Made by a program: the position numbers and the translations under genes. A stretch of DNA of 64,000 bases from Minisyncoccota bacterium (GTDB taxonomy: Bacteria; Patescibacteriota; Minisyncoccia; Phycocordibacterales; UBA9973), in assembly GCA_036517375.1 (NCBI GenBank), contig DATDWM010000018.1, forward strand, positions 9,004-73,003. The letters are read 5' to 3'. Below the pieces are notes generated by a model. The model made no database searches. It saw nothing but the letters and a program-made list of their open reading frames with translations, and was not told where the DNA came from. Positions 6,258-19,303 of this stretch are shown one piece after another. Every line of letters starts with the position of its first letter. Position 1 is the first letter of the stretch.

Positions 6258-7985
6258 TTGCAAAATATCAGAATGAAAGAAAGTGAAATAAGAAATTGTC
6301 AGAATTGCAAAACAGACTTCACGATAGAAACTGAAGATTTTAACTTCTACGAAAAAATAAAAGTTCCGCCCCCAACTTTTTGCCCAGAGTGTCGTTTGAT
6401 GCGACGTTTTATGCATACAAGCGAAACTGTTTTATATAAAAGGAAGTGTGATTTTTCTGGTAAAGAAATATTTAGCATGCATCCTGAGGGAGCAGAATTT
6501 CCTGTTTATGATACTGATATCTGGTATTCGGACGCCTGGGATCCTTATGCGTATGGAATGGATTACAACCCCAGTCGTCCATTCTTAGAACAATATTTTG
6601 AACTTCAAAGAAAGATACCTCGTATGTCTATCGTGAGACAAGGCATGGCTGTTAATAGTCCTTACGCACACCGAGTCACTGACCCTAAAAATGCGTATAT
6701 GGTCTTTCGTAGTTCTTATGCAGAAAATTCTTTTTATGTTTATAACGGTAAAAAACATGTCATGGATTGTTGTGACTGCTCCTGGATTTTTGAATGTGAG
6801 CTCTGTTATGAATGCGTGAATTGTGCCAATTGTTACAATGTAAAATTTGGGCAAGAAAGCAAAGATTCTCGAGACTGTTCTTTCATTTATGCATGCAGAA
6901 ACAGTTCTAATTGTGTAGGGTGTGTGAATTTAGTAAATGCGGAGTACTGTATCTGGAACAAAAAATATACAAAAGAAGAATACTTTAAAAAGATTAAGGA
7001 AATGGAATTAAACACTTTCTCCGGTATCGAAAAAATAAAAGTCGAATTTGAAAATTTCAGAAAGACATTTCCACAAAGATCAACTATGTCTATAAAATCC
7101 GATGATGTATCCGGTAACTGGTTTTTAAATAGTAAGAATGTTCACAAATCTTTTGACTGCGAGGGGGTAAAAGACGGGAAATATCTATTTATGGTGTTTG
7201 ATGCACAGGACTGCATGGACTATTTTGAATGGGGTAATAAAGCAGAGCAGATATACGAATCGCAAAATTGCGGACTTGATATTGCACGGCTTTATTTCTG
7301 TAATCAGTGTTGGGCGGGAGCACATGACCTTTATTATTGTGATCTTTGCCCTGGTGCACATGATTGTTTTGGTTGTGTTGGTCTTAAGAAAGGGGAATAT
7401 TCAATTTTAAATAAAAAATATCCAAAAAAAGAATATGAAGTTCTTAAAAAAGAAATCACAGAGCAGATGAAGAGAGTGCCCTATATAGACAAAAAAGGTT
7501 TAGAGTATCGATTTGGTGAAAATTTCCCTCCATCTTTTTCCGATCATGCTTATAATGAAACTATCGCTAATTATTATTATCCGCTTACTAAAGAGGAAAC
7601 AGAAAATACCGGGTATCGTTGGGCGGACAGAAAGAAAAGAAACTATGATGTTACACTGAAACCCGCAGACTTACCAGAAACAATAGGGGAAGTAAATGAT
7701 TTGATTTTAGGTGAAGTTATAGAATGTGCCGAAAAGGATAATCCGAATTCAGTGGGAGCGTATAGAATTGTAGAAAACGAACTATCTTTTTACCGAAGAA
7801 TGGATTTGCCTTTACCGAGAGTTTGTTTCGATATTAGACATATACGAAGAATGGATAAACGCCCGCCCTTAAAAATTATAAATCGCAACTGTTCAAAATG
7901 TAGTAAAGAGGTGGAAACAGTCTATACAGAGCACTATGCACCGATTTTATACTGTGAAAAGTGTTATCAGCAGGAGGTATATTAG
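6258..7985 (+). CDS. Cys-rich hypothetical protein with N- and C-terminal zinc-ribbon-like motifs and internal Cys repeats
   Basis: 575 aa. N-terminus CQNCKTDFTIETEDFNFYEKIKVPPPTFCPECRLMRRF. A related motif sits near the C-terminus (FYRRMDLPLPRVCFDIRHIRRMDKRPPL), followed by CSKCSK...YCEKCY. Two internal CxxC-rich blocks each end in NKKY[TP]KEEY. No recognisable enzymatic motif. Confidence 0.6.
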   Translation: MQNIRMKESEIRNCQNCKTDFTIETEDFNFYEKIKVPPPTFCPECRLMRRFMHTSETVLYKRKCDFSGKEIFSMHPEGAEFPVYDTDIWYSDAWDPYAYGMDYNPSRPFLEQYFELQRKIPRMSIVRQGMAVNSPYAHRVTDPKNAYMVFRSSYAENSFYVYNGKKHVMDCCDCSWIFECELCYECVNCANCYNVKFGQESKDSRDCSFIYACRNSSNCVGCVNLVNAEYCIWNKKYTKEEYFKKIKEMELNTFSGIEKIKVEFENFRKTFPQRSTMSIKSDDVSGNWFLNSKNVHKSFDCEGVKDGKYLFMVFDAQDCMDYFEWGNKAEQIYESQNCGLDIARLYFCNQCWAGAHDLYYCDLCPGAHDCFGCVGLKKGEYSILNKKYPKKEYEVLKKEITEQMKRVPYIDKKGLEYRFGENFPPSFSDHAYNETIANYYYPLTKEETENTGYRWADRKKRNYDVTLKPADLPETIGEVNDLILGEVIECAEKDNPNSVGAYRIVENELSFYRRMDLPLPRVCFDIRHIRRMDKRPPLKIINRNCSKCSKEVETVYTEHYAPILYCEKCYQQEVY

Positions 7986-8750: not shown

Positions 8751-11153
8751 ATGGAGGGAAATAAATTTTTGCAAAAAAATATGAAAGTAGCTGTATTGTG
8801 CGGTGGGCCTTCCTTAGAACGCGGAATATCTCTCAACTCTGCTCGCAGTATCCTTGACCATCTAGGTAGCCAAGGAGTTGAGATAATACCAATTTACTTC
8901 AACGAACAAAAAAGTCCGTATAAAATTTCTACGGCACAATTATATTCGAACACCCCGAGCGATTTTGACTTTAAACTCGACAATAAATCTAAACTCTCAC
9001 CCACCTCACTAATTCGTATTTTAAAAAGTGTAGACATTGTTTTTCCTTGTATACATGGAAGCTTCGGAGAGGATGGGGAGCTACAGAGCTTCCTCGAAAA
9101 GCACAAGATACCATTTATCGGTTCATCTTCAAGCTCATGTAAGAAGGCCTTCGATAAATACAAAGCGAATGAGTACATTCGCTCGCTTGGATTCTATGCG
9201 CCGAACTCTATTGTCATAAAGATTACCGATTCTTCAAGAGACATTAAGGAAAAAGTAAATAAATTTTGGAAAGATGAGGATATTACTCGCGCGATAGTTA
9301 AGCCCGCGAGCGGCGGATCGAGCATTGGGGTTTTCTCGGTAGAGAATATCTCTGACGCTCTCCTAAGCATAGAAAGCCTCTTTAGTAAACGCATGGATAC
9401 TCGGGTAGTAGTGGAGCCCTTTGCTAGGGGGATAGAATTCACAGTAATTGTTTTAGAAAACAGGCTGAATATGCCGGTGGCTATATTGCCGACAGAAATA
9501 GAGGTAGAATATACGGAAAATCAATTTTTTGACTTCCGTAAAAAATATTTACCTACTCGACATGTTACGTATCATTGCCCACCTAGATTTTCCAACGAAA
9601 TTATTGAAAAAATTCAAATTGAAGCGGAACAGTTGTTTTCTATTTTTGGAATGCAGGATTTTGCTCGCTTCGATGGATTTCTGATGCCGGACGGAAATAT
9701 TTGGTTTTCGGACTTCAATCCTATTTCAGGCATGGAGCAAAACAGCTTTCTTTTCCAGCAGGCTTCACGCATTGGCTTTTCACATCAGGACCTCTTCCGA
9801 TATATTGTAAATAACGCGTGTATGCGTAGAGGAATCTCGGGGGCGGTAGAAAATATTTTTATTGCCGAGGATCGCAAGCCACTAGCGGTTCTTTTCGGCG
9901 GGGAAACGGCGGAAAAGCAGGTTTCATTAATGAGTGGTACGAATGTCTGGCTTAAGTTGCGAGGCTCAGAGATTTATAAACCATTTCCGTACCTACTTGG
10001 CCCAAAGGGCGAGGTCTGGGAGCTACCGTATTCGTATATTCTAAATCATACGGTAGAGGAGATAATTGAAAATGCAAAGAGCGCGGAGCAGGATGTGGAC
10101 AGGCTTTCTTTCCTCATTGAGAAGGTCAAGATTAAATTGTCTTTAAATAGCGGGGACACTACCGAGAACTTCTTTATTCCTAGAAAGTATTCACTCGCTC
10201 AAATACTCCAGAAATTTCCTTTTGTTTTTATAGCTCTCCATGGTGGATTTGGCGAGGATGGCACACTGCAGAAGATTCTAAAAGGTGAAAAAATAAAATT
10301 TAACGGATCCGGAAGCGTTGTTTCAAAATTATGCATGGATAAATGGGAAACGAACGAAACAATAAAAAAAGCACAGATAAAAGGAGTAACCGTGGCTGAG
10401 CACGCCCTGTTCCAAATAAGGGATGTCCCTGAACACACCGACAACGACTTGAAAGAAGTGCATTGGAGGATGCTAGTAGAGCGGCTAAGCACAAAGACCA
10501 TCATCGGAAAGCCAAGAGGGGACGGATGTTCTGCTGGTGTGGTGATGCTTTCTAATGAAAAAGATTTGTCTACTTATATATCATTGATAAAAAATAAAGT
10601 AAAGATTGCCAAGCCACATACTTTCACTAATCAAACACATAGCATCGATATGCCAGAGGGTGATGTGCAGGATATTATTTTCGAATCATTTATCGAGACG
10701 GATAGACTGAAAGTGCACAAAGGGGAAATTACTCATATTCCTAAAAGTGGGTATGTGGAAATGACAGTGGGAGTTTTCGAAGAAAGGGGGAAGGTTAGAT
10801 CATTTTCCCCATCTATTACCATAGCCGAGGATACAATACTTTCTGTAGAAGAAAAATTCCAAGGTGGAACCGGGGTAAACATTACTCCTCCACCAAAAGA
10901 AATTATTTCTACTAAGAACTTGAATAAAGTAAAGAGTTTAGTTGAACAAGTTGCCAAAAAAATAGGGATTCGAGGATATTCAAGGATAGACATCTTCGTT
11001 CACATTAAAACTGGTACTATTATTGTGATTGAAATCAACACTTTACCCGGACTAACCCCATCTACGGTAATATACCATCAAGCTTTGGCGGAAAAGAAGC
11101 CGATGTTCCCGAAGGAATTCCTAGAGCTTTTGATCAAAAATAAGGGGTATTAA
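8751..11153 (+). CDS. ddl: Tandem fusion of two complete D-alanine--D-alanine ligase-like ATP-grasp modules (Ddl-Ddl)
   Basis: First half: MKVAVLCGGPSLERGISLNS...FPCIHGSFGEDGELQ...IVKPASGGSSIGV...ARFDGFL...SDFNPISG. Second half repeats the pattern: PLAVLFGGETAEKQVSLMS...FIALHGGFGEDGTLQ...IIGKPRGDGCSAGV...SRIDIFV...IEINTLPG. 800 aa. The true start may be the MKVAVL ATG at 8781. Confidence 0.8.
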   Translation: MEGNKFLQKNMKVAVLCGGPSLERGISLNSARSILDHLGSQGVEIIPIYFNEQKSPYKISTAQLYSNTPSDFDFKLDNKSKLSPTSLIRILKSVDIVFPCIHGSFGEDGELQSFLEKHKIPFIGSSSSSCKKAFDKYKANEYIRSLGFYAPNSIVIKITDSSRDIKEKVNKFWKDEDITRAIVKPASGGSSIGVFSVENISDALLSIESLFSKRMDTRVVVEPFARGIEFTVIVLENRLNMPVAILPTEIEVEYTENQFFDFRKKYLPTRHVTYHCPPRFSNEIIEKIQIEAEQLFSIFGMQDFARFDGFLMPDGNIWFSDFNPISGMEQNSFLFQQASRIGFSHQDLFRYIVNNACMRRGISGAVENIFIAEDRKPLAVLFGGETAEKQVSLMSGTNVWLKLRGSEIYKPFPYLLGPKGEVWELPYSYILNHTVEEIIENAKSAEQDVDRLSFLIEKVKIKLSLNSGDTTENFFIPRKYSLAQILQKFPFVFIALHGGFGEDGTLQKILKGEKIKFNGSGSVVSKLCMDKWETNETIKKAQIKGVTVAEHALFQIRDVPEHTDNDLKEVHWRMLVERLSTKTIIGKPRGDGCSAGVVMLSNEKDLSTYISLIKNKVKIAKPHTFTNQTHSIDMPEGDVQDIIFESFIETDRLKVHKGEITHIPKSGYVEMTVGVFEERGKVRSFSPSITIAEDTILSVEEKFQGGTGVNITPPPKEIISTKNLNKVKSLVEQVAKKIGIRGYSRIDIFVHIKTGTIIVIEINTLPGLTPSTVIYHQALAEKKPMFPKEFLELLIKNKGY

Positions 11154-11212: not shown

Positions 11213-11371
11213 ATGTCCCAAGATAGACTAATAAAACTCGCCTGCGGAACCTGTAAGCGTATCAACTACTGGTCCAGCAAGAACAAGAAACTCGTCACTA
11301 AAAAGATTGAGCTCCAAAAGTTTTGCAAGTGGTGCAAGAAGAAAACTAAGCACAAAGAATCTAAGAAATAA
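11213..11371 (+). CDS. rpmG: 50S ribosomal protein L33 (52 aa, absent from the ORF track because it is under 60 aa)
   Basis: My translation: MSQDRLIKLACGTCKRINYWSSKNKKLVTKKIELQKFCKWCKKKTKHKESKK. It matches Cys4-type bacterial L33 (compare B. subtilis [49 protein letters not shown]). Confidence 0.85.
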   Translation: MSQDRLIKLACGTCKRINYWSSKNKKLVTKKIELQKFCKWCKKKTKHKESKK

Positions 11372-11552: not shown

Positions 11553-11623
11553 GGGCGATTAGTATAATGGTAGTACAAAGGCCTCCAAATCCTTTGGCGG
11601 GGGTTCGATTCCCTCATCGCCCG
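11553..11623 (+). tRNA. tRNA-Trp (anticodon CCA)
   Basis: Manual fold. Acceptor GGGCGAT/ATCGCCC. D-loop has GG. Anticodon loop CUCCAAA is identical to E. coli tRNA-Trp. T-arm GGGGGTTCGATTCCCTC. Discriminator G, no encoded CCA. The 31-39 position is a C-U mismatch. Confidence 0.8.
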
Positions 11624-11653
11624 CAGATTTTTTAGAGTTTCTGATTATATTTC

Positions 11654-11682
11654 TTGACCTAATGACCAAATCAAGGTATATT
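11654..11682 (+). promoter_or_regulatory. Putative promoter driving the island operon: -35 TTGACC (11654-11659), 17-nt spacer, -10 TATATT (11677-11682)
   Basis: Hexamers read directly. Located between tRNA-Trp and the epimerase gene. Confidence 0.4.
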
Positions 11683-11779
11683 ATATTAATATAATAAAAG
11701 AGAAATCGTTGTTATTCTTGATTTAGATAGTACCTTGGTTGATACAGATTTTATTTGAATTAATGTTATACATAATTTT

Positions 11780-12814
11780 ATGACTAAAATTCTTATTACT
11801 GGTGGTTGTGGTTTTATTGGCTCAAATGCGGTTAAGTACTATCTTCAAAAAAATTATAGTGTTCTCGTGCTAGATAATTTAAGCAGGTCTGGTTCTGAGC
11901 AAAATTTAAAATGGTTGCGAACACTTAAGGGTAAATTTTCTTTCAAGAAAATAGATATAACTAGCTACGTTTCTCTAGTAAGGATTTTTAAAGAATTTAA
12001 GCCTGATTTAATTTTACATTTAGCCGGACAAACTACTGTAGTTGGTTCCATATTAGATCCGAGAGAAGATTTTGAGGTTAATGCGCTTGGGACTTTCAAT
12101 TTACTAGAGACAATGAGGAACATAACACCAAAAGCTGCTTTGATTTACTCAAGTACTAATAAGGTAATGGGCAATTTGGAATATGTGCCTATTATAGAAA
12201 AACAGGAACGTTATATATATAAAAATATTAAAAATATTTCAGAAAAATATCAATTAAATTTCCATAGCCCGTATGGTTGTTCAAAGGGGTGTGGTGATCA
12301 GTACGTAACTGATTATGCTAAAGTTTTTAATTTAAATACAGTTGTGTTTAGACAATCTTGTATATATGGTCCTAATCAATTTGGTATGGAAGAACAAGGT
12401 TGGTTGGCGTGGTTTATTATTTCTTCGCTTTTTAATAAAGAAATTACAATCTTTGGTAATGGTAAGCAGGTGAGAGATGTTTTGTATGTGGACGATTTAA
12501 TTGATGCTTATGATCTAGCTTTTGTGAATATAAATAAGACAAAAGGGAAAATTTATAATATAGGTGGAGGGATTGAATTTAACTTATCTCTTTTAGAGTC
12601 TTTAAAAATTATTGGAAATATAGTCGGTAAAAACTTAAAATATAACTTAAGTTCATGGAGAACTGCTGACCAGAAGGTTTATATTTCTGATGTTGCTTTA
12701 GCAAAAAAAGATTTTGGTTGGTATCCAAAAGTTTCTCCTAAAGACGGTCTCAAAAAACTTTACAAATGGGTAGAAGAAAATAAAACTATTTTTAATAAAA
12801 TTTATACCAGATAA
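11780..12814 (+). CDS. NAD-dependent nucleotide-sugar epimerase/dehydratase (extended SDR, CDP-paratose-2-epimerase / UDP-Glc-4-epimerase-like)
   Basis: N-terminal Rossmann ILITGGCGFIGSN, SSTNKVMG, catalytic Y...K (YGCSKGCGDQY). 344 aa. Very AT-rich codon usage. Confidence 0.8.
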   Translation: MTKILITGGCGFIGSNAVKYYLQKNYSVLVLDNLSRSGSEQNLKWLRTLKGKFSFKKIDITSYVSLVRIFKEFKPDLILHLAGQTTVVGSILDPREDFEVNALGTFNLLETMRNITPKAALIYSSTNKVMGNLEYVPIIEKQERYIYKNIKNISEKYQLNFHSPYGCSKGCGDQYVTDYAKVFNLNTVVFRQSCIYGPNQFGMEEQGWLAWFIISSLFNKEITIFGNGKQVRDVLYVDDLIDAYDLAFVNINKTKGKIYNIGGGIEFNLSLLESLKIIGNIVGKNLKYNLSSWRTADQKVYISDVALAKKDFGWYPKVSPKDGLKKLYKWVEENKTIFNKIYTR

Positions 12815-12815
12815 T

Positions 12816-14027
12816 ATGATTTCTAATAAAAAAATGAAGATTTGTATATATGCCCATAGTTTTCCTCCTATCATTGGCGGTGCTCAAACTTATCAATATA
12901 ATCTAGCCGTTGGGTTAGGAAAGTTGGGGCACGAAGTCCTGGTCTTAACCGGTGATATTCCTGATTCTTTAAAACCGAAAATTAAAGACTATAAGTCATC
13001 ATATTTTAAAATAGTAAGAATACCGCTTTTTCGAGAATCAATAAAAATGAAAGCACCATTTAGAGATTTACTAATGGAATCATTCACATTCTTAAAAAAA
13101 TTTAATCCAGACATTATCTATTCCAATGGTTATGTTCCTTGTCTTTTAATTTCTTTAATTAAAGATGGTTTGAGGGCAAAGCACGTTTATAGTTATCACT
13201 CTACTCCAGAATTGGATGTAAATAAACTAGTAGGTATATGGCCAGGGAACTTAGATTTCGAACTTTCAGTGGCAAGATTTATTTTTAATAAAGGATCATT
13301 TGATGCTTATTTAGCTTGCAGTGACAATTATCTTAGCACTGTAAAGAAGAATATTAATTCCCAAATTAAGAATGCTCACCGGATTTATTACGGTGTAGAT
13401 ATATCCAAGTTTTCTTATAAAATTAAAGCTGACAGAGAGAAGTATGGATTTAGTGAAAATGATTTCGTTATTCTCTGCCCTGTGAGATTAATAGAAAGAA
13501 AGGGGATTTTAGATATCTTGCGAGCCATCAGTCAATTAAAGAAAATAATTCCTGGTGTAAAACTTTTAATTCCCACAAGCAAGCTTTCTACTAATGATAA
13601 GTTTAGCAAATTAGTACTCAACCTAATAAAATCTTTAAAAATCGAAAATAACGTAACAATAAGGGTTGATCAGTTTACCATTGATGATATGCCGATGGCA
13701 TACTCACTTTCAGACCTTGTGATATTGCCTTCATATTCAGAAGGGCTAGGTATCGTTTTATTAGAGGCCATGGCGATGAAAAAGCCAGTCGTAGCTACAG
13801 ATATTTCTGGCGTAAATGAAGTAGTTAAACACAATAAAACGGGCTTATTGGTTCCAGTTAAGAGTCCTAAAAAAATTGCTGAAGCAATTAAATTAATCTT
13901 TAGTGATAGCAAGTTAAGAAATAATTTAATCGATGGTGCTTATGCTATGATAGAGAAAGATTTTGAATTGAATAAACAAGTAAAGAAGGTTGAGGGGCTT
14001 TTCAAAAAAGTACATGGAAAAAATTAA
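12816..14027 (+). CDS. GT4-family glycosyltransferase (GT-B fold)
   Basis: C-terminal E-X7-E motif region EGLGIVLLEAMAMKKPVVATDISGVNEVV..TGLLV. N-terminal FPPIIGGAQ. 403 aa. Confidence 0.85.
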   Translation: MISNKKMKICIYAHSFPPIIGGAQTYQYNLAVGLGKLGHEVLVLTGDIPDSLKPKIKDYKSSYFKIVRIPLFRESIKMKAPFRDLLMESFTFLKKFNPDIIYSNGYVPCLLISLIKDGLRAKHVYSYHSTPELDVNKLVGIWPGNLDFELSVARFIFNKGSFDAYLACSDNYLSTVKKNINSQIKNAHRIYYGVDISKFSYKIKADREKYGFSENDFVILCPVRLIERKGILDILRAISQLKKIIPGVKLLIPTSKLSTNDKFSKLVLNLIKSLKIENNVTIRVDQFTIDDMPMAYSLSDLVILPSYSEGLGIVLLEAMAMKKPVVATDISGVNEVVKHNKTGLLVPVKSPKKIAEAIKLIFSDSKLRNNLIDGAYAMIEKDFELNKQVKKVEGLFKKVHGKN

Positions 14028-14634
14028 CTATAAACTAGCTAATAAGATCAAAAAACATATAAAAAATAGCGATCGTCCGCTCATTATTGTGATTTCTGGT
14101 GTTAATGGGGCTGGGAAAACTACTTTGGCTTTTCACTTATCAAATATATTAGATATAAGACAGCGTGTTAGTTTGGGGTCGATAGTAAAAACTTTGATTG
14201 TGATGAATCCTAAAAATAAAGTTATCTCTAAGATGAATAATTATTTCTTTCCTCTTAATAAGGTAGATATACACAAGCAGGCATTAATCATAAGTAAGGC
14301 AACTAACTCAATGATTAAGAAGTATTACATTGGGGGAGTTTCCTGTATTATAGAAGGGGTACAGCTTCTGACTCGTTATCTTGATAAGAACTGTATTCAA
14401 TTCCACATAAAGATAACTAATAAAAAAAAATATAATAAACAACTAAGAAACAGCGACACAAGAAATCCTCGTAATCTTTCTGAGAAAGTATTCGGAAATC
14501 TGTTGGCGGTGAATGATATTTTAAATAATGAGATGGATATGCCAAATGTGAATTGTTTAGAAAACTCCCGGTCCTTAAATGAAAATATAAATATCGTATT
14601 GAAAACTTTAATTATCAATCTTAATATTAAATAA
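14014..14634 (+). CDS. P-loop NTPase, putative small-molecule or nucleotide kinase
   Basis: Walker A IVISGVNGAGKTTLA near the N-terminus. ATG at 14014 is preferred over the ORF-track TTG at 13990. The start overlaps the GT4 stop by 14 nt. The C-terminal half has no recognisable motif. Confidence 0.55.
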   Translation: MEKINYKLANKIKKHIKNSDRPLIIVISGVNGAGKTTLAFHLSNILDIRQRVSLGSIVKTLIVMNPKNKVISKMNNYFFPLNKVDIHKQALIISKATNSMIKKYYIGGVSCIIEGVQLLTRYLDKNCIQFHIKITNKKKYNKQLRNSDTRNPRNLSEKVFGNLLAVNDILNNEMDMPNVNCLENSRSLNENINIVLKTLIINLNIK

Positions 14635-14638
14635 ATTT

Positions 14639-15622
14639 ATGCCCATCGATTTTACTGAAATTAAACAATTATCAAAGGAAGCAAAAGAAATTTCTAATGC
14701 TCTAAGAAAAGAACTTGGAGAGATGCCTCACAAAATTGAGGGAAACTTTATTGCTTTCTTTGGCCGTCAGTACAATCCTGATCATAAATGGAACTGTGCT
14801 CTGAAGCCCTTATGGTCTGGTTTCTATATTAAGTATAACGAATTAGAAATGATGGTTGATCCTGGAATCAATATTCTGGAGCGAGCAGAAAAGATTGGTG
14901 TAAATTTGGCTCGTACTAACACATTATTTATTTCCCACTCACATATCGACCACAAAAACGACTCTAATGTAATTGCTGAGATGGTCTCTTATAGAGAGAA
15001 CCCTGAATTAAATGTGCTATTTTCGAAACACTCTTTAAATGATAACGCAATGAGTCACTACCACTCTTCATCTAGGGAGAATAAGATAATTTTGCTTGAT
15101 GAGAATGAAGAGGTAGAATTATATAACGGTGTTAAACTTAAGCCCGTAGAAGTTGTACATTCAATTAATGGTGCATATGGTTTTGTATTAGACTTGAATG
15201 GAGTAAAAATTGGATACACAGGGGACACAGGCTTTAATACAACTTATAAAAGTGCTGACGGTAGAGAACTATCTGTTTCAGAAAAAGTACTCGACAAAAA
15301 AGATATAGAAGAACCTGGAGCTTTCAATGAGGACCTGAAAACTTTTTTTAGTGAAGTTGATTTATTAGTTTTCAACTTGCATGACGTGGAATTTAGAAAA
15401 CACACTAAACATAATTTATACCACTCTACAGTTTCTGATGCGGTGAAAGTTTTAAGAGATTCAAAAGTAAAACATTGTTTCTTTGAACATTTTAACCCAT
15501 ACGGTGGAGGGTTGGGTTTAGAATATCCTCAAAAAGTAAACCAATATATACGAGAATCTACTGGCAAGGAAACTACCCTTACCCCATTAAACGGAAGTGT
15601 TTATAGCTTAAATAATATTTAA
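14639..15622 (+). CDS. Metallo-beta-lactamase-fold hydrolase
   Basis: HxHxDH motif (FISHSHIDHKND) and downstream GYTGDTG/H residues. 327 aa. Confidence 0.7.
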   Translation: MPIDFTEIKQLSKEAKEISNALRKELGEMPHKIEGNFIAFFGRQYNPDHKWNCALKPLWSGFYIKYNELEMMVDPGINILERAEKIGVNLARTNTLFISHSHIDHKNDSNVIAEMVSYRENPELNVLFSKHSLNDNAMSHYHSSSRENKIILLDENEEVELYNGVKLKPVEVVHSINGAYGFVLDLNGVKIGYTGDTGFNTTYKSADGRELSVSEKVLDKKDIEEPGAFNEDLKTFFSEVDLLVFNLHDVEFRKHTKHNLYHSTVSDAVKVLRDSKVKHCFFEHFNPYGGGLGLEYPQKVNQYIRESTGKETTLTPLNGSVYSLNNI

Positions 15623-15624
15623 TT

Positions 15625-16677
15625 ATGCCAAGTGAAGCACCAAAATTTTTCGTAGATAAAGTTAGAGAGCAAAAGGAGGAAGATCCTAAACCGTATGATG
15701 CTGTTATTTCATTAGAACCTGGTAAAGAAAAAGTGGGCTTCGTTAGAGATAATTTCGTTTGTGAGGTTGTGGACGAAAAGGGAAATGAGTCTACAATTAG
15801 AATTCCAACCTCTATTACATATTCTAGAAAAGATGCGAATGAACCATGGAGTAAGAAGTTGTATGGCTACAGAGAGGGCGTAGGAGAGGCTTTAGATTCA
15901 GAAGAAATGAGTTACTACGTAGTCTACGATCCATCATCTGAATTAAGCTTCCTAGCTATGCCGCTTGAGGATAATACTAGAATTGCACGTAATAAGGACA
16001 ATTTAGACTTGTTTTTAAAAAACGGTCGAGAAGAAGACACTGAATCATTAAAAAAATTGATGGGCGAATTTAAAGACGTGGATTTCGGATTATTCGGTTC
16101 ACGTAGTGTTCTAGGCTCACCAGCAGCAAAAACAGTAGACATAGATTTGATTATTTATGGGCCTGAAGATTTACAAAGAGTAGTTTCTGCGATAGAAGGA
16201 AATAGTGATTTGCGCAAAAAAATAGGTCTAACAGATAGGTCTTCTGAAACAATAGAAAAATATGTAGCTCACTACATGCGAAAATTTAACATTACAGAAA
16301 GTGAGGCCAGGATTATAACCTTAAGAAGAAGGAGGTATATATTAAAACCTAACATTAAGTTATCGTTCAACTGCGCCCTGCCTGATAAAGAGAGAAAAAC
16401 TCCTATTGTTATAGGTTCTAAGAAAATTCATGATATTACAATTGAAGCCACAGCTTTGGATACCTCAATGTCTTCAGCTTTGCCTAGATTATTTTCAGTC
16501 GAAACTGAAGGGGAAAAAATAGATGTTGTGACTGGTAATTGGTCATTAAAAGATTTCATTAGACCAGGAGATAAAGTTAAAGTTATAGGCGCGTTAAGAG
16601 AGTCTAATGGTGTTACTTTTATCTCTTTAGAGAAACCAGGAGATATCATTCTCCCAACTAATAATGATAAGAAATAA
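15625..16677 (+). CDS. Pol-beta-superfamily nucleotidyltransferase with an uncharacterised N-terminal domain of about 140 aa
   Basis: Minimal NTase signature GLFGSRSVLGSPAAKTVDIDLIIYG (GS...DxD) around residue 150-175. I recognise no motif in the flanking domains. 350 aa. Confidence 0.55.
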   Translation: MPSEAPKFFVDKVREQKEEDPKPYDAVISLEPGKEKVGFVRDNFVCEVVDEKGNESTIRIPTSITYSRKDANEPWSKKLYGYREGVGEALDSEEMSYYVVYDPSSELSFLAMPLEDNTRIARNKDNLDLFLKNGREEDTESLKKLMGEFKDVDFGLFGSRSVLGSPAAKTVDIDLIIYGPEDLQRVVSAIEGNSDLRKKIGLTDRSSETIEKYVAHYMRKFNITESEARIITLRRRRYILKPNIKLSFNCALPDKERKTPIVIGSKKIHDITIEATALDTSMSSALPRLFSVETEGEKIDVVTGNWSLKDFIRPGDKVKVIGALRESNGVTFISLEKPGDIILPTNNDKK

Positions 16678-17578
16678 TGACAATACAGAGAAGATCTTAG
16701 TCAATAGTAAATTCGTTAAGAATTTAAATGTTACTGGCGATAAACTTCACTGTGAGGCTGGCCTGTATGTTTCACTTGGCCGTAAGTACGTGATCAAAAA
16801 AATAGGAAGACAATATAAATTAAATTCCACAGAACTTATACTCCTTGAAAAATCTGTATCGAGATACTACGATCATTTAAAAAAAATCATACCTAATAAT
16901 GTTCCTAAAATTTTTCTTACTAAGATAGATAAGGAGAAAAATTGCATTTTATTAGTTACGGAATATTTACCTTTAGGTAAAGTTACAGCTATTAAAGATA
17001 TTTCAATGAAAATTAAATATTTTAATGAAATTATTAAGTTAATACTCAAGATTTCAAACAAGAAAGGCAATACCTCTGGAAATAAACTCAAATGTTCTAT
17101 TGATCCCAATCCAGATAATTTCTTTTTGGATTCAGAAAATAAGATAGTATATAACGATTTCACACCACCGTTGTACAGAGAAAATGGTAAGTGGGTAGAA
17201 TTTAGAAGAAGAGACGAGGCTCATGCAAAAAAATCTGAAAAGGAAACTCGTTATTTTTCCGAAATAAATTTATTGCTGGCATTTATTAATAAAACAAGAT
17301 TGTATCTAACTTTAGATGAATACCTTAAGTTTTCCAGGTCACACTTTTCAACTAATAATAAGGTAAAGCAGTTTGTAAAAATCTTTGATGAAGTTAGATC
17401 TGAGAGGGTAGCAAGTTTCGATAAACTTGAGAAGCATGTCGTGCGAAGAGATTTATTAAGATTTGCCTTGTCCTTTCGCAAGGGTTTAACAAGTACTCAG
17501 GTCGGAGAACTTTACAAGAAATCTAAAAAACCTAACGGTGTTGTATTTCTTGAGAAAAAATATATAAGTTTAATTTAA
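16664..17578 (+). CDS. Hypothetical protein, possibly protein-kinase-like fold (APH / Kdo-kinase-like)
   Basis: CSIDPNPDNFFLD...KIVYNDFTPP resembles the kinase catalytic loop (D-x4-N) plus a DF-type metal-binding motif. The assignment is weak. The start overlaps the previous gene by 14 nt. Confidence 0.4.
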   Translation: MIRNNDNTEKILVNSKFVKNLNVTGDKLHCEAGLYVSLGRKYVIKKIGRQYKLNSTELILLEKSVSRYYDHLKKIIPNNVPKIFLTKIDKEKNCILLVTEYLPLGKVTAIKDISMKIKYFNEIIKLILKISNKKGNTSGNKLKCSIDPNPDNFFLDSENKIVYNDFTPPLYRENGKWVEFRRRDEAHAKKSEKETRYFSEINLLLAFINKTRLYLTLDEYLKFSRSHFSTNNKVKQFVKIFDEVRSERVASFDKLEKHVVRRDLLRFALSFRKGLTSTQVGELYKKSKKPNGVVFLEKKYISLI

Positions 17579-17582
17579 TATT

Positions 17583-18221
17583 ATGAATGAAGTAAATAAA
17601 GATGGTTTTTGTACAATTTACATAGCTAGACATGGAAAAACTGAGTGGAATTTGGAAAAAATAAACCAAGGTCAGTCGGAGTCAAATATTTCTGAGCTCG
17701 GACTTAAGCAAGCACAAGAAGCAAGTCACAAATTAAAAGATGTGAATTTTAGTGCTATATATTCTTCAGATTTATCTATGGCGCATAGAACAGCTGAGAT
17801 TATTAAGGGTAATCGAGATATAGATATTCAAAAATCTAAATCATTAAGAGGTCGTTCATATGGAACTTTTGAGGGTAAAAAGATTGAGGTATATAAGAAC
17901 TTTTTTAAGGATAAGTTAGCTGAAAGAGAAATTTTACCTGAAAAAGAATATATTTCATTTAGACTAGCCCCCGACATTGAAACTGATGAAGATATTACAA
18001 TTAGGTTTATGGGCAAGCTGATGGAAATATCCATTAATCATCCAAATGAGAGTGTGCTTGTGGTTACTCACGGCGGAGATATAAAAAACTTTCTAGTAAA
18101 GGTAGGTTACATCGAAAGGAAATCCTTTAAAGAGGGATCCTTTATTCATGGAGGGTATATGAAAGTAATTTCAGATGGTAATAATTTCTCAGTAGAATTA
18201 ATAGACGGAATAGAAGAATAA
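17583..18221 (+). CDS. Histidine phosphatase superfamily protein (phosphoglycerate-mutase-like)
   Basis: N-terminal IYIARHGKTEWN (RHG catalytic His motif) and downstream conserved His (VVTHGG). 212 aa. Confidence 0.75.
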   Translation: MNEVNKDGFCTIYIARHGKTEWNLEKINQGQSESNISELGLKQAQEASHKLKDVNFSAIYSSDLSMAHRTAEIIKGNRDIDIQKSKSLRGRSYGTFEGKKIEVYKNFFKDKLAEREILPEKEYISFRLAPDIETDEDITIRFMGKLMEISINHPNESVLVVTHGGDIKNFLVKVGYIERKSFKEGSFIHGGYMKVISDGNNFSVELIDGIEE

Positions 18222-18227
18222 TTTTTT

Positions 18228-18998
18228 CTATTTCTTTCTTATTTCAAAAATAACATACATAGGAATTTTTGAATATATTTTGTAGAATTCAGGTTTTACT
18301 TTGAGAACAGATTTCAATGGTTTTGGTTCAATAAAATCTGAAACTATAAACCCGCTTTTTAATATGTCACTTATCATTGCAGAAATAGGTCGATGATAAT
18401 AAGTCACTTTAAAATCATCAGACAGAACATCACTTACTTTTCTTGTAGCTAAGTAATCCCCAAAAATCTTACCTTCTTTAGATCCATTATTTTGATACCC
18501 CATTAGAAAAGATTTTTTACCTACTGCTTTATTTATTTCCGCCCCCCACTTAACTGGGTGGTGTGTTGAAAAAAGAAATGTTCCATTTTTCTTTAGTATT
18601 CTTGAAACTTTAGTAAGTATTTTTGTCCAATCTTTTGAATAGTGTAATGCTAAGCTGGAGTAGATGAAATCAAAAGAATTATCAGGGAAATTTAACTTTT
18701 CCATATCCATAGTATGAAATTCTAAATTAGGGATAGTTTTCTTTAAAAAATTAATACGTTCATTTGATATGTCTATACCAACAACTCTTTTTGCCCCAAG
18801 AGACTTTATATGCTGACATTCTTCACCTGTACCACAACCTATACATAATACCGTTTTTCCTTTTAAGTTTGGAATTTTTTTATACATAGCTGGTTTCTCT
18901 AGATATGTATGCTTTATGTTTTTTCCGCTCCGCATTTTTTCAGCACATTTTATGGTGTATTTATTATAGGATTCGATTGTGGTTTTGTCTGTGGGCAT
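18228..18998 (-). CDS. Class I SAM-dependent methyltransferase
   Basis: Motif I VLCIGCGTGEE and motif post-I VVGIDIS. 256 aa. The only minus-strand gene in the AT-rich island. Confidence 0.75.
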   Translation of the reverse strand: MPTDKTTIESYNKYTIKCAEKMRSGKNIKHTYLEKPAMYKKIPNLKGKTVLCIGCGTGEECQHIKSLGAKRVVGIDISNERINFLKKTIPNLEFHTMDMEKLNFPDNSFDFIYSSLALHYSKDWTKILTKVSRILKKNGTFLFSTHHPVKWGAEINKAVGKKSFLMGYQNNGSKEGKIFGDYLATRKVSDVLSDDFKVTYYHRPISAMISDILKSGFIVSDFIEPKPLKSVLKVKPEFYKIYSKIPMYVIFEIRKK

Positions 18999-19303
18999 GT
19001 TTAAAATTCATTATTATTATAGATTCTGGTAAATTTGAGTTTTATGTATAATTATATGCTTTATTGTATACAAGTTATCTGTACAATACAAATTATACTC
19101 ATACAGCTTATTATAAGTACCCTTTAAAGGGGTACGGGGGTCGTTTTCCGGGGTCCGGATACCCCCTGATGATACTTATGATGTTTTAGTAAAACATGCT
19201 ATATTTTGAAGGGCATTAAGACTTGTTTTAATCAAAGAGTGGTCTTTTATTAATTCTGAAATCCACTCTGAAAGCCCGCACATAATGTAAGAGAATTCCC
19301 AAA

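Follow-up and report, generated by a model that had tools for sequence, protein, structure and literature searches.

A predicted three-domain nucleotidyltransferase family of the Pol-beta superfamily in a possible glycoside operon of Paceibacterota

The nucleotidyltransferases (NTases) of the sugar-activation systems AmgK-MurU, NahK with GlmU-type enzymes and HldE have the RmlA/GalU fold or the HIGH-motif cytidylyltransferase fold, not the Pol-beta fold. NTases with the Pol-beta fold normally use hydroxyl nucleophiles. On proteins, CitX and MdcG load a serine with a phosphoribosyl prosthetic group, taken from a triphosphate donor, and MntA and GlnE represent protein adenylylation. In TiaS, the archaeal tRNA-Ile2 agmatidine synthetase, a catalytic domain is combined with an OB fold. 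Genomes of CPR bacteria and DPANN archaea are very small, and many of the genes conserved in them lack an assigned function. Here we describe an NTase gene, termed NT-OB, in a 64-kb window (the whole stretch of DNA analysed, 64,000 nucleotides). The operon that contains it looks like a sugar/inositol-glycoside pathway, unlike an anti-phage system.

The NT-OB gene, its domains and its family

The NT-OB gene lies at 15625-16677 on the + strand, exactly where a first-pass annotation of this DNA had placed an open reading frame; it starts with ATG and encodes 350 aa. All homologues with 63-100% identity (n = 32) are about 350 aa long. Comparison with orthologues gave pN values of 0.10-0.24 with saturated synonymous sites, and dN/dS was ~0.04-0.08 where it could be computed. 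NT-OB is a genuine gene, and purifying selection on it is strong. The peptide quoted in the annotation, GLFGSRSVLGSPAAKTVDIDLIIYG, corresponds to residues 155-179 (nt 16087-16161). The Pol-beta signature, defined as an h-G-[GS] turn followed 9-20 residues on by a [DE]-h-[DE]-h strand, is found in NT-OB as the G158-S159 turn and D172-I-D174-L on the next strand. Across 86 NT-OB homologues, with identities down to ~17%, S159, D172 and D174 were invariant and G155 and G158 nearly so; this G-S...D-x-D motif is more than a chance match.

The AlphaFold (AF2) model of NT-OB (pLDDT 92.2, pTM 0.90) predicts a three-part protein consisting of an N-terminal beta domain, a Pol-beta NTase core and a C-terminal OB fold. 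A usable model needed an 86-sequence alignment, 21 close homologues having given a pLDDT of 57. In the N-terminal beta-rich domain (15625-15990, + strand, aa 1-122), modelled as strands within residues 8-121 at a pLDDT of 83-97, D25, Y66, K77 and P113 are kept family-wide. No relatives of this domain were detected in Pfam, NCBIfam or PDB, and its interpretation as a second OB copy produced by internal duplication was rejected (hhalign probability 0.1%). The NTase core (15991-16389, + strand, aa 123-255) was delimited from AF2 secondary structure and the invariant G/S/D/D residues. It is modelled, in order, as helices 123-148, the G155-x-x-G158-S159 strand and turn, the D172-x-D174 strand, a helical insert (180-234), the conserved R234-R237 basic cluster adjoining the core strands, and strands 237-251. 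E256 is the sole candidate for a third catalytic carboxylate and is not clearly placed: it is kept by 46 of 65 distant members and belongs to the loop after strand 244-251, where the mid-strand position is S247.

The C-terminal OB-fold barrel (16420-16656, + strand, aa 266-344) carries the family-invariant P287 as well as R288, D279, W306 and G322. It most closely resembles nucleic-acid-binding OB folds, and both the whole protein (pI 5.5) and the OB domain (pI 5.8) are acidic. Since P287 is invariant, the conservation pattern suggests that the OB domain belongs to the catalytic pocket rather than forming a free nucleic-acid-binding arm. The first-pass annotation had described a minimal NTase in which the motif sits mid-protein, after an unrecognised domain of about 140 aa. 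The motif does follow an N-terminal domain that is indeed unrecognised; that segment is really a beta domain of ~122 aa plus two helices of the NTase core, and the C-terminal OB fold had been missed. The label "minimal" is wrong because the protein has three domains.

When the window copy alone was compared with Pfam NTP_transf_2, the match was below the 21-bit cut-off (15.1 bits, E 0.03). At the level of the family, NTP_transf_2 was matched by 34 of 50 diverse members (best E 1.8e-6), Polbeta by 19 and MTPAP-like by 13. A search of PDB with the family profile retrieved the poly(A) polymerase Trf4 (E 7.5e-4) and MntA (E 2.3e-3), with Trf4 and TUT7 aligning solely around the core residues. The invariant motif and these family-level matches bear out the assignment to the Pol-beta type made in the first-pass annotation.

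Full-length homology was sought to aminoglycoside (ANT) or lincosamide (Lnu) nucleotidyltransferases and to CCA-adding or poly(A) polymerases, which that annotation had named as grounds for abandoning its proposal; none was found, and the matches were confined to the core. Kanamycin NTase aligned over the core at E 0.2, and a cryptic ANT(3'')/(9) model reached 2.1e-3 in 1 of 86 members. Membership of the CCA-adding, poly(A) or TUTase groups was rejected on the core-only alignment and the lack of any PAP_assoc or PolyA_pol match in Pfam. Kinship with CitX/MdcG was likewise rejected (hhalign probability 0.1% for the family profile against E. coli CitX; Pfam CitX/MdcG in 0 of 50 members), as was an RmlA/RfbF/GalU-type enzyme, as NT-OB has neither the G-x-G-T-R-L motif nor a GT-A-like fold. 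A minimal NTase of the MntA-HepT kind was rejected given the length of 350 aa and the lack of HEPN in neighbouring ORFs (Pfam); NCBIfam MntA matches were weak (7 of 86 members, best E 8.3e-4). A CD-NTase/SMODS assignment found no Pfam or PADLOC match and no effector-type family in the operon (Pfam). A lead towards TiaS was unsupported by homology and structure searches.

The NT-OB family is rare but widely scattered, with 85 clusters in 1.84 billion proteins, distributed over CPR bacteria and DPANN/TACK archaea. The window protein has no fitting Pfam or NCBIfam model, and searches for a solved structure analogous over the full length found none. No description of the family or the operon was found in literature searches on CitG/methanopterin, 2-phosphoglycerate kinase with an NTase and OB fold, MIPS in Patescibacteria, COG1665 and TiaS. 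We conclude that NT-OB represents a hitherto undescribed three-domain family within the Pol-beta superfamily.

The seven-gene operon and its sister loci

A tRNA-Trp gene (CCA; 11553-11624, + strand; ARAGORN, and Rfam tRNA at 64.2 bits) marks the left edge of a low-GC island. GC content drops from ~0.40 to ~0.31 directly downstream of it, stays at 27-36% compared with 39-44% in the flanks, and is back to ~0.39 after ~19.3 kb, in agreement with the accessory island proposed in the first-pass annotation. A search of the island's far side for an att-like direct repeat of the tRNA end was negative. We regard the operon as horizontally acquired, in an ultra-small CPR bacterium (Candidatus Paceibacterota). 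It consists of seven co-directional genes spanning ~7.5 kb, separated by spacers of at most 5 nt or joined by 14-nt overlaps, with NT-OB in fifth place. No terminator-like site was predicted within it on the + strand, no riboswitch or other Rfam element was found upstream, and a promoter scan gave no excess over shuffled expectation.

The first gene (11780-12814, + strand) encodes an extended SDR resembling CDP-tyvelose 2-epimerase (Pfam Epimerase, E 7.9e-51). Full-length PDB matches were 9rl0 (E 7.6e-101) and 1orr (E 9.3e-93), followed by a dTDP-glucose dehydratase (1.4e-38), and by this likeness the enzyme is probably an epimerase of CDP/NDP-hexoses. The second (12816-14027, + strand) encodes a retaining GT4 glycosyltransferase (Pfam Glycos_transf_1, E 3.5e-36). 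Its NCBIfam matches to BshA (1.9e-26) and MshA (2.4e-21) were both under cut-off, and its best solved relatives were BshA structures, matched over the full length (2jjm and 3mbo at ~2e-21, 5d00 at 4e-20); it appears nearest to BshA/MshA-type enzymes, which glycosylate small acceptors.

The third gene (14014-14634, + strand) encodes a P-loop kinase of the 2-phosphoglycerate kinase / mevalonate-3-phosphate 5-kinase family, with the motifs GVNGAGKTT (Walker A) and EGVQL. Its ORF opens with TTG at 13990 and its homologues begin at the ATG at 14014, which gives a 14-nt overlap with the end of the GT4 gene. The 2-phosphoglycerate kinase model NF003259 (NCBIfam) was matched by 11 of 11 orthologues and analogues (best 7.4e-21) and the mevalonate-3-phosphate 5-kinase model by 5 of 11 (5.7e-19); the window copy itself scored under the NCBIfam cut-off. 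Among the neighbours of the NT-OB family, this kinase is the one that recurs in the largest number of lineages (CPR and DPANN loci L006, L007, L013-15 and L017).

The fourth gene (14639-15622, + strand), which stops 2 nt ahead of the NT-OB start, encodes a metallo-beta-lactamase-fold (MBL) hydrolase with a complete set of metal ligands (H100-x-H102-x-D104-H105, H174, D196 and H262). It is probably a phosphodiesterase. Weak matches were to RNase Z (3e-10, sub-threshold in NCBIfam) and to Apyc1/cyclic-nucleotide phosphodiesterases (E 0.007 for the window copy, stronger in L002 and L004). The sixth gene (16664-17578, + strand), which overlaps the 3' end of NT-OB by 14 nt, encodes a kinase of the protein-kinase-like (PKL) fold (Pfam ABC1, E 5.3e-4, below cut-off). 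All of 8 orthologues retain D147-x4-N152 of its catalytic loop and the metal-binding D165, and in profile comparisons with Aurora/BTK the hinge, catalytic loop and DFG align at E ~1; PDB profile searches with this kinase and with the MBL protein gave generic or marginal matches only. The PKL kinase family is co-distributed with the NTase clade (38 proteins), the distant locus L017 has a homologue after its NTase (E 2.2e-25), and the substrate is probably a small molecule.

The seventh gene (17583-18221, + strand) encodes a PhoE-like histidine phosphatase of branch 1 (Pfam His_Phos_1, E 4.1e-35; PDB PhoE 1ebb/1h2e, ~4e-18), which occurs in the window, L001, L009 and L004/5. The MBL, kinase-like and phosphatase neighbours, and the coupling of NT-OB to the first two, are thus as the first-pass annotation had described, according to ORF positions and Pfam. 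A convergent class-I SAM methyltransferase gene (18228-18998, - strand; Pfam Methyltransf_11, E 4.2e-24) forms the right end of the island. Its position is conserved only in L001 and L009, where the copies are ~80% identical, and its membership of the pathway is uncertain.

The six-gene core (SDR-GT4-PLK-MBL-NT-KINL) was present in 9/9 close loci, located on 7 distinct contigs, with NTases 63-81% identical and differing surroundings; the SDR was found in all of them. Eight of the 9 close loci (6 of 7 distinct contigs) carry a myo-inositol-1-phosphate synthase (MIPS) gene within the operon or next to it; the gene is absent from the window and from L009. In a clade with 27-33% identity (L006, L017), the SDR, glycosyltransferase, MBL, NTase and P-loop kinase recur. 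A phmmer search with E. coli RfbA retrieved no RmlA/RfbF-type NTase, either from the window or from the flanks of 19 loci. With no canonical sugar-1-phosphate NTase nearby, NT-OB is the sole candidate NTase in cis; the genome could carry a gene for a canonical NDP-sugar enzyme at another site.

More distant contexts, sampled from individual family members, were mixed and included radical-SAM clusters, a polyprenyl synthase and a methanofuran/H4MPT cluster. A Caldarchaeales member lies beside a Kdo/WaaP-like kinase, in Vulcanisaeta a genuine CitG homologue overlaps the NT-OB homologue, and elsewhere a His-phosphatase, NDK and NUDIX are neighbours. The member P0078 has a C-terminal PqqD-like peptide-recognition domain and lies between two radical-SAM genes, and a MiaB-like radical-SAM methylthiotransferase comes after the kinase-NTase pair of L007. 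The recurrent associates of the family across lineages are kinases and enzymes of phospho-metabolites. Given these mixed contexts, the substrate of NT-OB may differ between clades.

Defence genes were looked for in the same contexts. PADLOC returned nothing for the NTase, the MBL protein or the kinase-like protein, its hits being restricted to generic P-loop and methyltransferase matches. PHROGs contained no NT-OB match, and searches of IMG/VR, GenBank phages and GenBank plasmids for NT-OB relatives were negative. Generic toxin-antitoxin pairs were located a few kb away in two distant loci only (ParE/PhD in L006, MazE/PIN in L019), and no defence system was conserved with NT-OB in the contexts examined.

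Possible roles of NT-OB

A sugar pathway, which the first-pass annotation had offered as an alternative, is the reading favoured by gene context, namely by the CDP-tyvelose-2-epimerase-like SDR, the BshA-like GT4 and MIPS in sister loci. We estimate at about 50% the probability that NT-OB catalyses nucleotidyl transfer within a pathway to a small-molecule glycoside, with a CDP-sugar as its possible product. In this proposal NT-OB would act as a Mg2+-dependent NTase of the Pol-beta superfamily, and the seven-gene operon would build or remodel a small phosphorylated glycoside. An operon kinase would first produce a phosphorylated sugar or cyclitol, which NT-OB would nucleotidylate with an NTP, probably CTP because the operon encodes a CDP-sugar epimerase. 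The product could be an NDP(CDP)-sugar, for which there is no canonical sugar-1-phosphate NTase in cis, or an NMP/phosphodiester placed on a hydroxyl. The epimerase would then invert C2 of the activated sugar, and the GT4 would move it onto a small acceptor, either inositol phosphate made by MIPS (most sister loci) or a hydroxy-acid, from which the histidine phosphatase would finally strip the phosphate. The PKL kinase family member P0181, a fusion to His_Phos_1, was counted in favour of a phospho-glycoside pathway. We know of no Pol-beta-fold enzyme that forms NDP-sugars from sugar-1-phosphates, which counts against the glycoside reading. The nucleic-acid-like character of the OB fold and the missing MIPS gene in the window and L009 weigh in the same direction.

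A bolder and considerably less probable version holds that NT-OB founds a class of Pol-beta-fold sugar- or cyclitol-phosphate cytidylyltransferases. Such enzymes would be non-homologous replacements of the RfbF/IPCT type, pairing with 2-phosphoglycerate-kinase-like or protein-kinase-like kinases to yield CDP-sugars or CDP-inositol. The tyvelose-epimerase-like enzyme could epimerise CDP-inositol at the carbon adjacent to its phosphate. The kinase-NTase module, common to CPR bacteria and DPANN/TACK archaea, might then serve glycoside, lipid-head-group or cofactor assembly.

It is unlikely that NT-OB acts instead on nucleic acids, tailing or repairing RNA or tRNA 3' ends while its OB fold grips single-stranded RNA. 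Polynucleotide 5'-kinase activity would in that case belong to the P-loop kinase, RNase Z/J-like nuclease activity to the MBL protein and 2',3'-cyclic or 3'-phosphatase activity to the histidine phosphatase. The best profile match of the core is indeed the RNA-specific Trf4, but NT-OB has no PAP/CCA accessory domains and, in this clade, is acidic both as a whole and in its OB domain. The RNase Z matches of the MBL protein have to be set against a P-loop kinase of the small-molecule 2PGK/mevalonate-3-P kinase family, not of the Clp1/Pnkp type. The MiaB-like gene in L007 was also counted in favour of an RNA substrate. No RNA ligase or Hen1-type partner occurred among the contexts examined, and the gapless operon includes genes for proteins without a role in RNA repair: the CDP-sugar epimerase, the BshA-like GT4 and, in many loci, MIPS.

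A protein- or peptide-modifying transferase, CitX/MdcG-like or MntA/GlnE-like, that modifies a carrier or another target protein by adding a phospho-glycosyl or a nucleotidyl group appears slightly more doubtful still. The CitG homologue overlapping the Vulcanisaeta member would make a CitX-type triphosphate donor, and P0078 combines its PqqD-like domain with radical-SAM neighbours, but both links come from single, very distant members (~20% identity). The weak MntA matches of seven family members point the same way, against the lack of CitX kinship noted above. In addition, the Paceibacterota operon contains no gene for a carrier protein, HEPN or a precursor peptide.

Least probable by far is the toxin-antitoxin or nucleotide-signalling anti-phage module suggested in the first-pass annotation, with NT-OB making a signal, the MBL protein erasing the messenger as Apyc1 does and the kinase and phosphatase modulating it: the low-GC accessory island beside a tRNA gene and the weak Apyc1 matches agree with it, but NT-OB is not a minimal NTase, PADLOC is silent on its key proteins, the operon genes include no TIR, nuclease or HEPN and NT-OB has no CD-NTase/SMODS match (Pfam), the family is absent from phage, plasmid and viral collections, and the conserved partners are sugar-pathway enzymes.

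The analysis defines a rare NTase family with a confident predicted structure, a clear motif and an unprecedented combination of domains, and around it a complete, portable operon. If NT-OB supplies an activated sugar to the epimerase and the GT4, it would represent a structurally new way of activating sugars or cyclitols. The episymbiont would then make a small inositol- or hydroxy-acid-glycoside, for example a compatible solute, a precursor of a thiol-type cofactor or a surface molecule, and the widespread homologues of 2-phosphoglycerate kinase in non-methanogens would gain a function. Should the substrate be RNA or protein instead, the domain architecture of NT-OB would remain new among NTases. 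Being compact, the operon is directly testable by heterologous expression.

Comparison with described systems

Trf4 (3nyb), MntA (5yep) and kanamycin NTase (6p01) share with NT-OB the G-G/S turn and the D-x-D strand of the Pol-beta superfamily, in a match that spans a core of 50-90 residues and agrees with the AF2 topology. They have no counterpart to the N-terminal beta domain, the helical insert or the OB barrel. TiaS resembles NT-OB in being a multi-domain protein with a C-terminal nucleic-acid-type OB fold and in its archaeal occurrence. As for CitG-CitX and MdcB-MdcG, a CitG homologue overlaps a distant archaeal member, and here as there an enzyme of NTase fold could use a non-canonical 5'-triphosphate donor; NT-OB has no CitX homology, and the window operon encodes neither CitG nor an acyl-carrier protein.

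The MshA and BshA routes, which yield glycosyl-inositol and glycosyl-malate in the first steps of mycothiol and bacillithiol synthesis, are approached by the GT4, which lies near BshA, and by MIPS, which would feed inositol phosphate in most sister loci. A phosphatase is needed after MshA, and the operon has a histidine phosphatase. Those routes operate without a Pol-beta NTase, P-loop kinase, PKL kinase or MBL protein, all present in the NT-OB operon, and they use UDP-GlcNAc, unlike the CDP-type sugar proposed here; no MshB/C or BshB/C deacetylase or ligase genes were seen in the operon.

AmgK-MurU, NahK with GlmU-type enzymes and HldE follow the same logic of kinase(s), phosphatase, NTase, SDR epimerase and glycosyltransferase. 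The PKL kinase is translationally coupled to NT-OB, and the NDP-sugar epimerase and glycosyltransferase of the operon imply that an activated sugar is needed. HldE is the kinase/adenylyltransferase of ADP-heptose synthesis. The sugar-phosphate activity of NT-OB is putative. The likeness of NT-OB to RmlA/RfbF/GalU-type enzymes lies in its possible action only, not in family membership.

A conserved family with a Pol-beta nucleotidyltransferase core

The ORF reported by the first-pass annotation at 15625-16677 on the + strand was recovered with the same ATG start and 350-aa product. A protein identical to this product, which we refer to as NT-OB, is already on record ('hypothetical protein VJC14_02355', Candidatus Paceibacterota MAG), and 31 more homologues, with 63-81% identity and nearly all 350-352 aa long, were identified in Nomurabacteria/Paceibacterota metagenomes. 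Non-synonymous divergence from orthologues was 0.10-0.24, synonymous sites were saturated and dN/dS, where computable, was ~0.04-0.08, indicating that the gene for NT-OB is genuine and subject to strong purifying selection.

Searched alone, the window NT-OB gave a below-threshold match to the Pfam model NTP_transf_2 (E 0.03), no NCBIfam match and no meaningful PDB match. When 1.84 billion representative proteins were searched exhaustively with a profile, only 85 related clusters were returned, and the resulting family alignment contained 86 sequences, down to ~17% identity. In this alignment S159, D172, D174 and P287 are invariant and G155, G158, G179 and G322 nearly so; residues 155-179 form the peptide GLFGSRSVLGSPAAKTVDIDLIIYG. 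Across 50 diverse members, NTP_transf_2 was matched by 34 (best 1.8e-6), Polbeta by 19 and MTPAP-like by 13, and the family profile matched Trf4 poly(A) polymerase (7.5e-4) and MntA (2.3e-3) in the PDB. Motif and family-level HMM tests of Pol-beta superfamily membership were both positive. On the strength of the invariant motif and these family-level HMM and PDB matches, the proposed assignment to the Pol-beta nucleotidyltransferases (NTases) can be considered sound. The sole candidate for a third catalytic carboxylate is E256, kept in 46/65 distant members, a placement that is not confident.

An AlphaFold model built from 21 close homologues was poor (pLDDT 57); the model built from the 86-sequence alignment reached pLDDT 92.2 and pTM 0.90. 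It has three parts, so that the description of the protein as a 'minimal' NTase was wrong. The beta-rich N-terminal domain (aa 1-122), conserved at D25, Y66, K77 and P113 across the family, has no detectable relatives, bearing out an earlier remark that this region was unrecognised; the idea that it is a second OB copy was rejected. The NTase core (aa 123-255) consists of two helices, the G-S strand and turn, the D-x-D strand, a long helical insert and two further strands, which a basic R234-R237 cluster precedes. A C-terminal beta barrel follows (the OB domain, aa 266-344). Because the invariant P287 lies in this barrel, we infer that the OB domain helps to form the active site.

Tests of membership in the minimal NTase/MntA, CD-NTase, ANT/Lnu, CCA/PAP, CitX (hhalign probability 0.1%) and canonical sugar-1-P NTase families were all negative. 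Full-length homology to ANT/Lnu or CCA/PAP enzymes, which the first-pass annotation had named as evidence against its own reading, was looked for and not found. No curated Pfam or NCBIfam model matched the window NT-OB above threshold, other family members matching the generic core domain only; none of the solved structures represents the family, and no published description of it was found in the literature. NT-OB combines a known catalytic fold with a three-domain architecture and a conserved operon that are both new.

A seven-gene operon in a low-GC block

NT-OB is encoded by the fifth of seven co-directional + strand genes, joined by spacers of at most 5 nt or by 14-nt overlaps. The first (11780-12814) encodes an SDR enzyme resembling CDP-tyvelose 2-epimerase, with full-length PDB matches to 9rl0 (E 7.6e-101) and 1orr (E 9.3e-93), the next best being 1.4e-38. 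The second (12816-14027) encodes a GT4 glycosyltransferase whose best solved relatives are BshA enzymes. The third (probable start 14014, to 14634) encodes a P-loop kinase; a 2-phosphoglycerate kinase model matched this protein and every one of its counterparts from ten other loci (11/11), and a mevalonate-3-phosphate 5-kinase model also matched 5/11. The neighbours of NT-OB are as first described: an MBL hydrolase with all metal ligands conserved (14639-15622) ends 2 nt before it, a protein-kinase-like gene with invariant D-x4-N and D motifs (16664-17578) overlaps its end by 14 nt, and a PhoE-like histidine phosphatase (17583-18221) comes next. Neither a + strand terminator-like site inside the operon nor a riboswitch upstream of it was found.

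A convergent SAM methyltransferase gene (18228-18998, - strand) closes the block. GC content is 27-36% here (11600-19300) versus 39-44% in the flanks, falling straight after tRNA-Trp (11553-11624) and recovering past the methyltransferase. Acquired islands typically show such a pattern; a search found no att-like direct repeat here. Just upstream of the tRNA, the product of a small + strand ORF (11214-11371) is lysine-rich, ~52 aa long and has two C-x-x-C pairs; by eye it resembles ribosomal protein L33. Further upstream on the same strand, an 800-aa product (8751-11153) matched Dala_Dala_lig_N and Dala_Dala_lig_C in two stretches each, with further ATP-grasp matches at 584-764, and looks like a double Ddl-type ATP-grasp protein (tandem or fused); a 575-aa product (6258-7985) had no Pfam match at E<=1e-5.

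Gene context in close and distant relatives

The order SDR, GT4, P-loop kinase, MBL, NT-OB, kinase-like was kept in 9/9 close-clade loci (7 distinct contigs) with differing genomic surroundings. Myo-inositol-1-phosphate synthase (MIPS) lies inside or beside the operon in 8/9 (6/7 distinct contigs), and is absent from the remaining locus, L009, and from the 64-kb window. An extra gene between SDR and GT4 was found in 7/9 sister loci (5 distinct contigs; for example L002 1985-2896, L004 5184-6143 and L010 6269-7189) and is not present in the window; its ~305-aa product resembles the transglutaminase core only weakly (E 6.6e-4 to 0.07). The kinase-like family shares the narrow distribution of the NTase clade. 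In one metagenomic protein, P0181 (503 aa), the kinase-like protein is naturally fused to a His_Phos_1 phosphatase, which supports functional coupling of genes six and seven.

The next clade (27-33% identity) retains SDR, a glycosyltransferase (GT4 and/or GT9), MBL, NT-OB and the P-loop kinase, and one of its loci, L017, the kinase-like gene also. At one more distant CPR locus the P-loop kinase is the only partner still adjacent, followed by a MiaB-like radical-SAM gene. Two Pacearchaeota loci (L013 5588-9486 and L015 4422-8338) share a run of transaldolase/FSA, 2PGK-like P-loop kinase, NT-OB, polyprenyl synthase and a reverse-strand HAD hydrolase. Matches of some P-loop kinase alignment members to the mevalonate-3-phosphate 5-kinase model hint at an isoprenoid-metabolism link in DPANN archaea. 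In Caldarchaeales (L016 5937-9661), two tandem 342-aa NT-OB paralogues adjoin a 539-aa Kdo/WaaP-family kinase encoded on the other strand.

In Vulcanisaeta (L008 6986-12043, BAAIFK010000001.1), the distant homologue P0088 lies within a methanofuran/tetrahydromethanopterin cluster (FTR, Fwd subunits, MCH, ATP-grasp genes, 4HFCP synthase and Fae). Overlapping its gene is that of a genuine CitG homologue (25% identity to E. coli CitG over ~300 aa); this CitG and NTase pair, which lacks CitX homology, possibly performs a missing cofactor-assembly step. The archaeal P0078 (L019 4820-8541; 440 aa) ends in a PqqD-like peptide-recognition domain. Its gene lies between a radical-SAM gene and one for a B12-binding radical-SAM protein, beyond which come a HAD hydrolase and a class Ib aaRS-like gene, in what looks like a RiPP-like or tailoring cluster. 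Another homologue, P0050 (L018 2252-4911), sits in the run His_Phos_1, NT-OB, NDK, NUDIX. Its contig, rich in small ORFs, also has PD-(D/E)XK, RecA and M23 peptidase genes and one for a 1945-aa protein; the region may be a mobile element or phage-like, and no match was found in IMG/VR. Collectively, what these lineages have in common is the company of kinases and phospho-metabolite enzymes rather than defence genes.

A proposed pathway for a small phosphorylated glycoside

We estimate at about one in two the probability that the operon is a pathway for a small phosphorylated glycoside, the sugar-pathway option that the first-pass annotation had rated level with defence. For a CDP-hexose 2-epimerase and a BshA/MshA-like transferase to work, an activated sugar and a small acceptor are required; MIPS gives inositol phosphate in most versions of the operon, and a phosphatase is present too. 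The resemblance of the OB domain to nucleic-acid binders is a counterpoint to this small-molecule reading and would suit an NTase acting on RNA ends, which we consider unlikely; NT-OB and its OB domain are acidic (pI 5.5 and 5.8), which is weak evidence against RNA binding. That NT-OB modifies proteins or peptides, or transfers a prosthetic group, seems less probable again. The toxin-antitoxin or nucleotide-signalling defence role favoured by the first-pass annotation is very improbable: PADLOC and PHROGs gave no match for the NTase, Pfam scans of the operon genes revealed no HEPN or effector-type family, no relatives were found in viral, phage or plasmid collections, and no clustering of homologues with defence genes was seen in the contexts examined. 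Part of the probability goes to none of these four readings.

Within the glycoside pathway, NT-OB is the only NTase available in cis, since no RmlA/RfbF-type sugar-1-phosphate NTase was found in the window or the flanks of 19 loci. As it is also translationally coupled to a PKL-fold kinase, we propose from context that NT-OB would perform the nucleotidyl-transfer step, forming a CDP/NDP-sugar or CDP-cyclitol or else nucleotidylating a hydroxyl of an intermediate. Enzymes of the Pol-beta fold are not known to produce NDP-sugars. A more tentative suggestion is that CPR and DPANN/TACK lineages share a class of sugar/cyclitol-phosphate cytidylyltransferases with this fold; the family and its operon are well defined and testable. 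The pairing of NT-OB with a kinase follows the logic of AmgK-MurU, NahK and HldE, in which sugars are activated by a kinase and an NTase.
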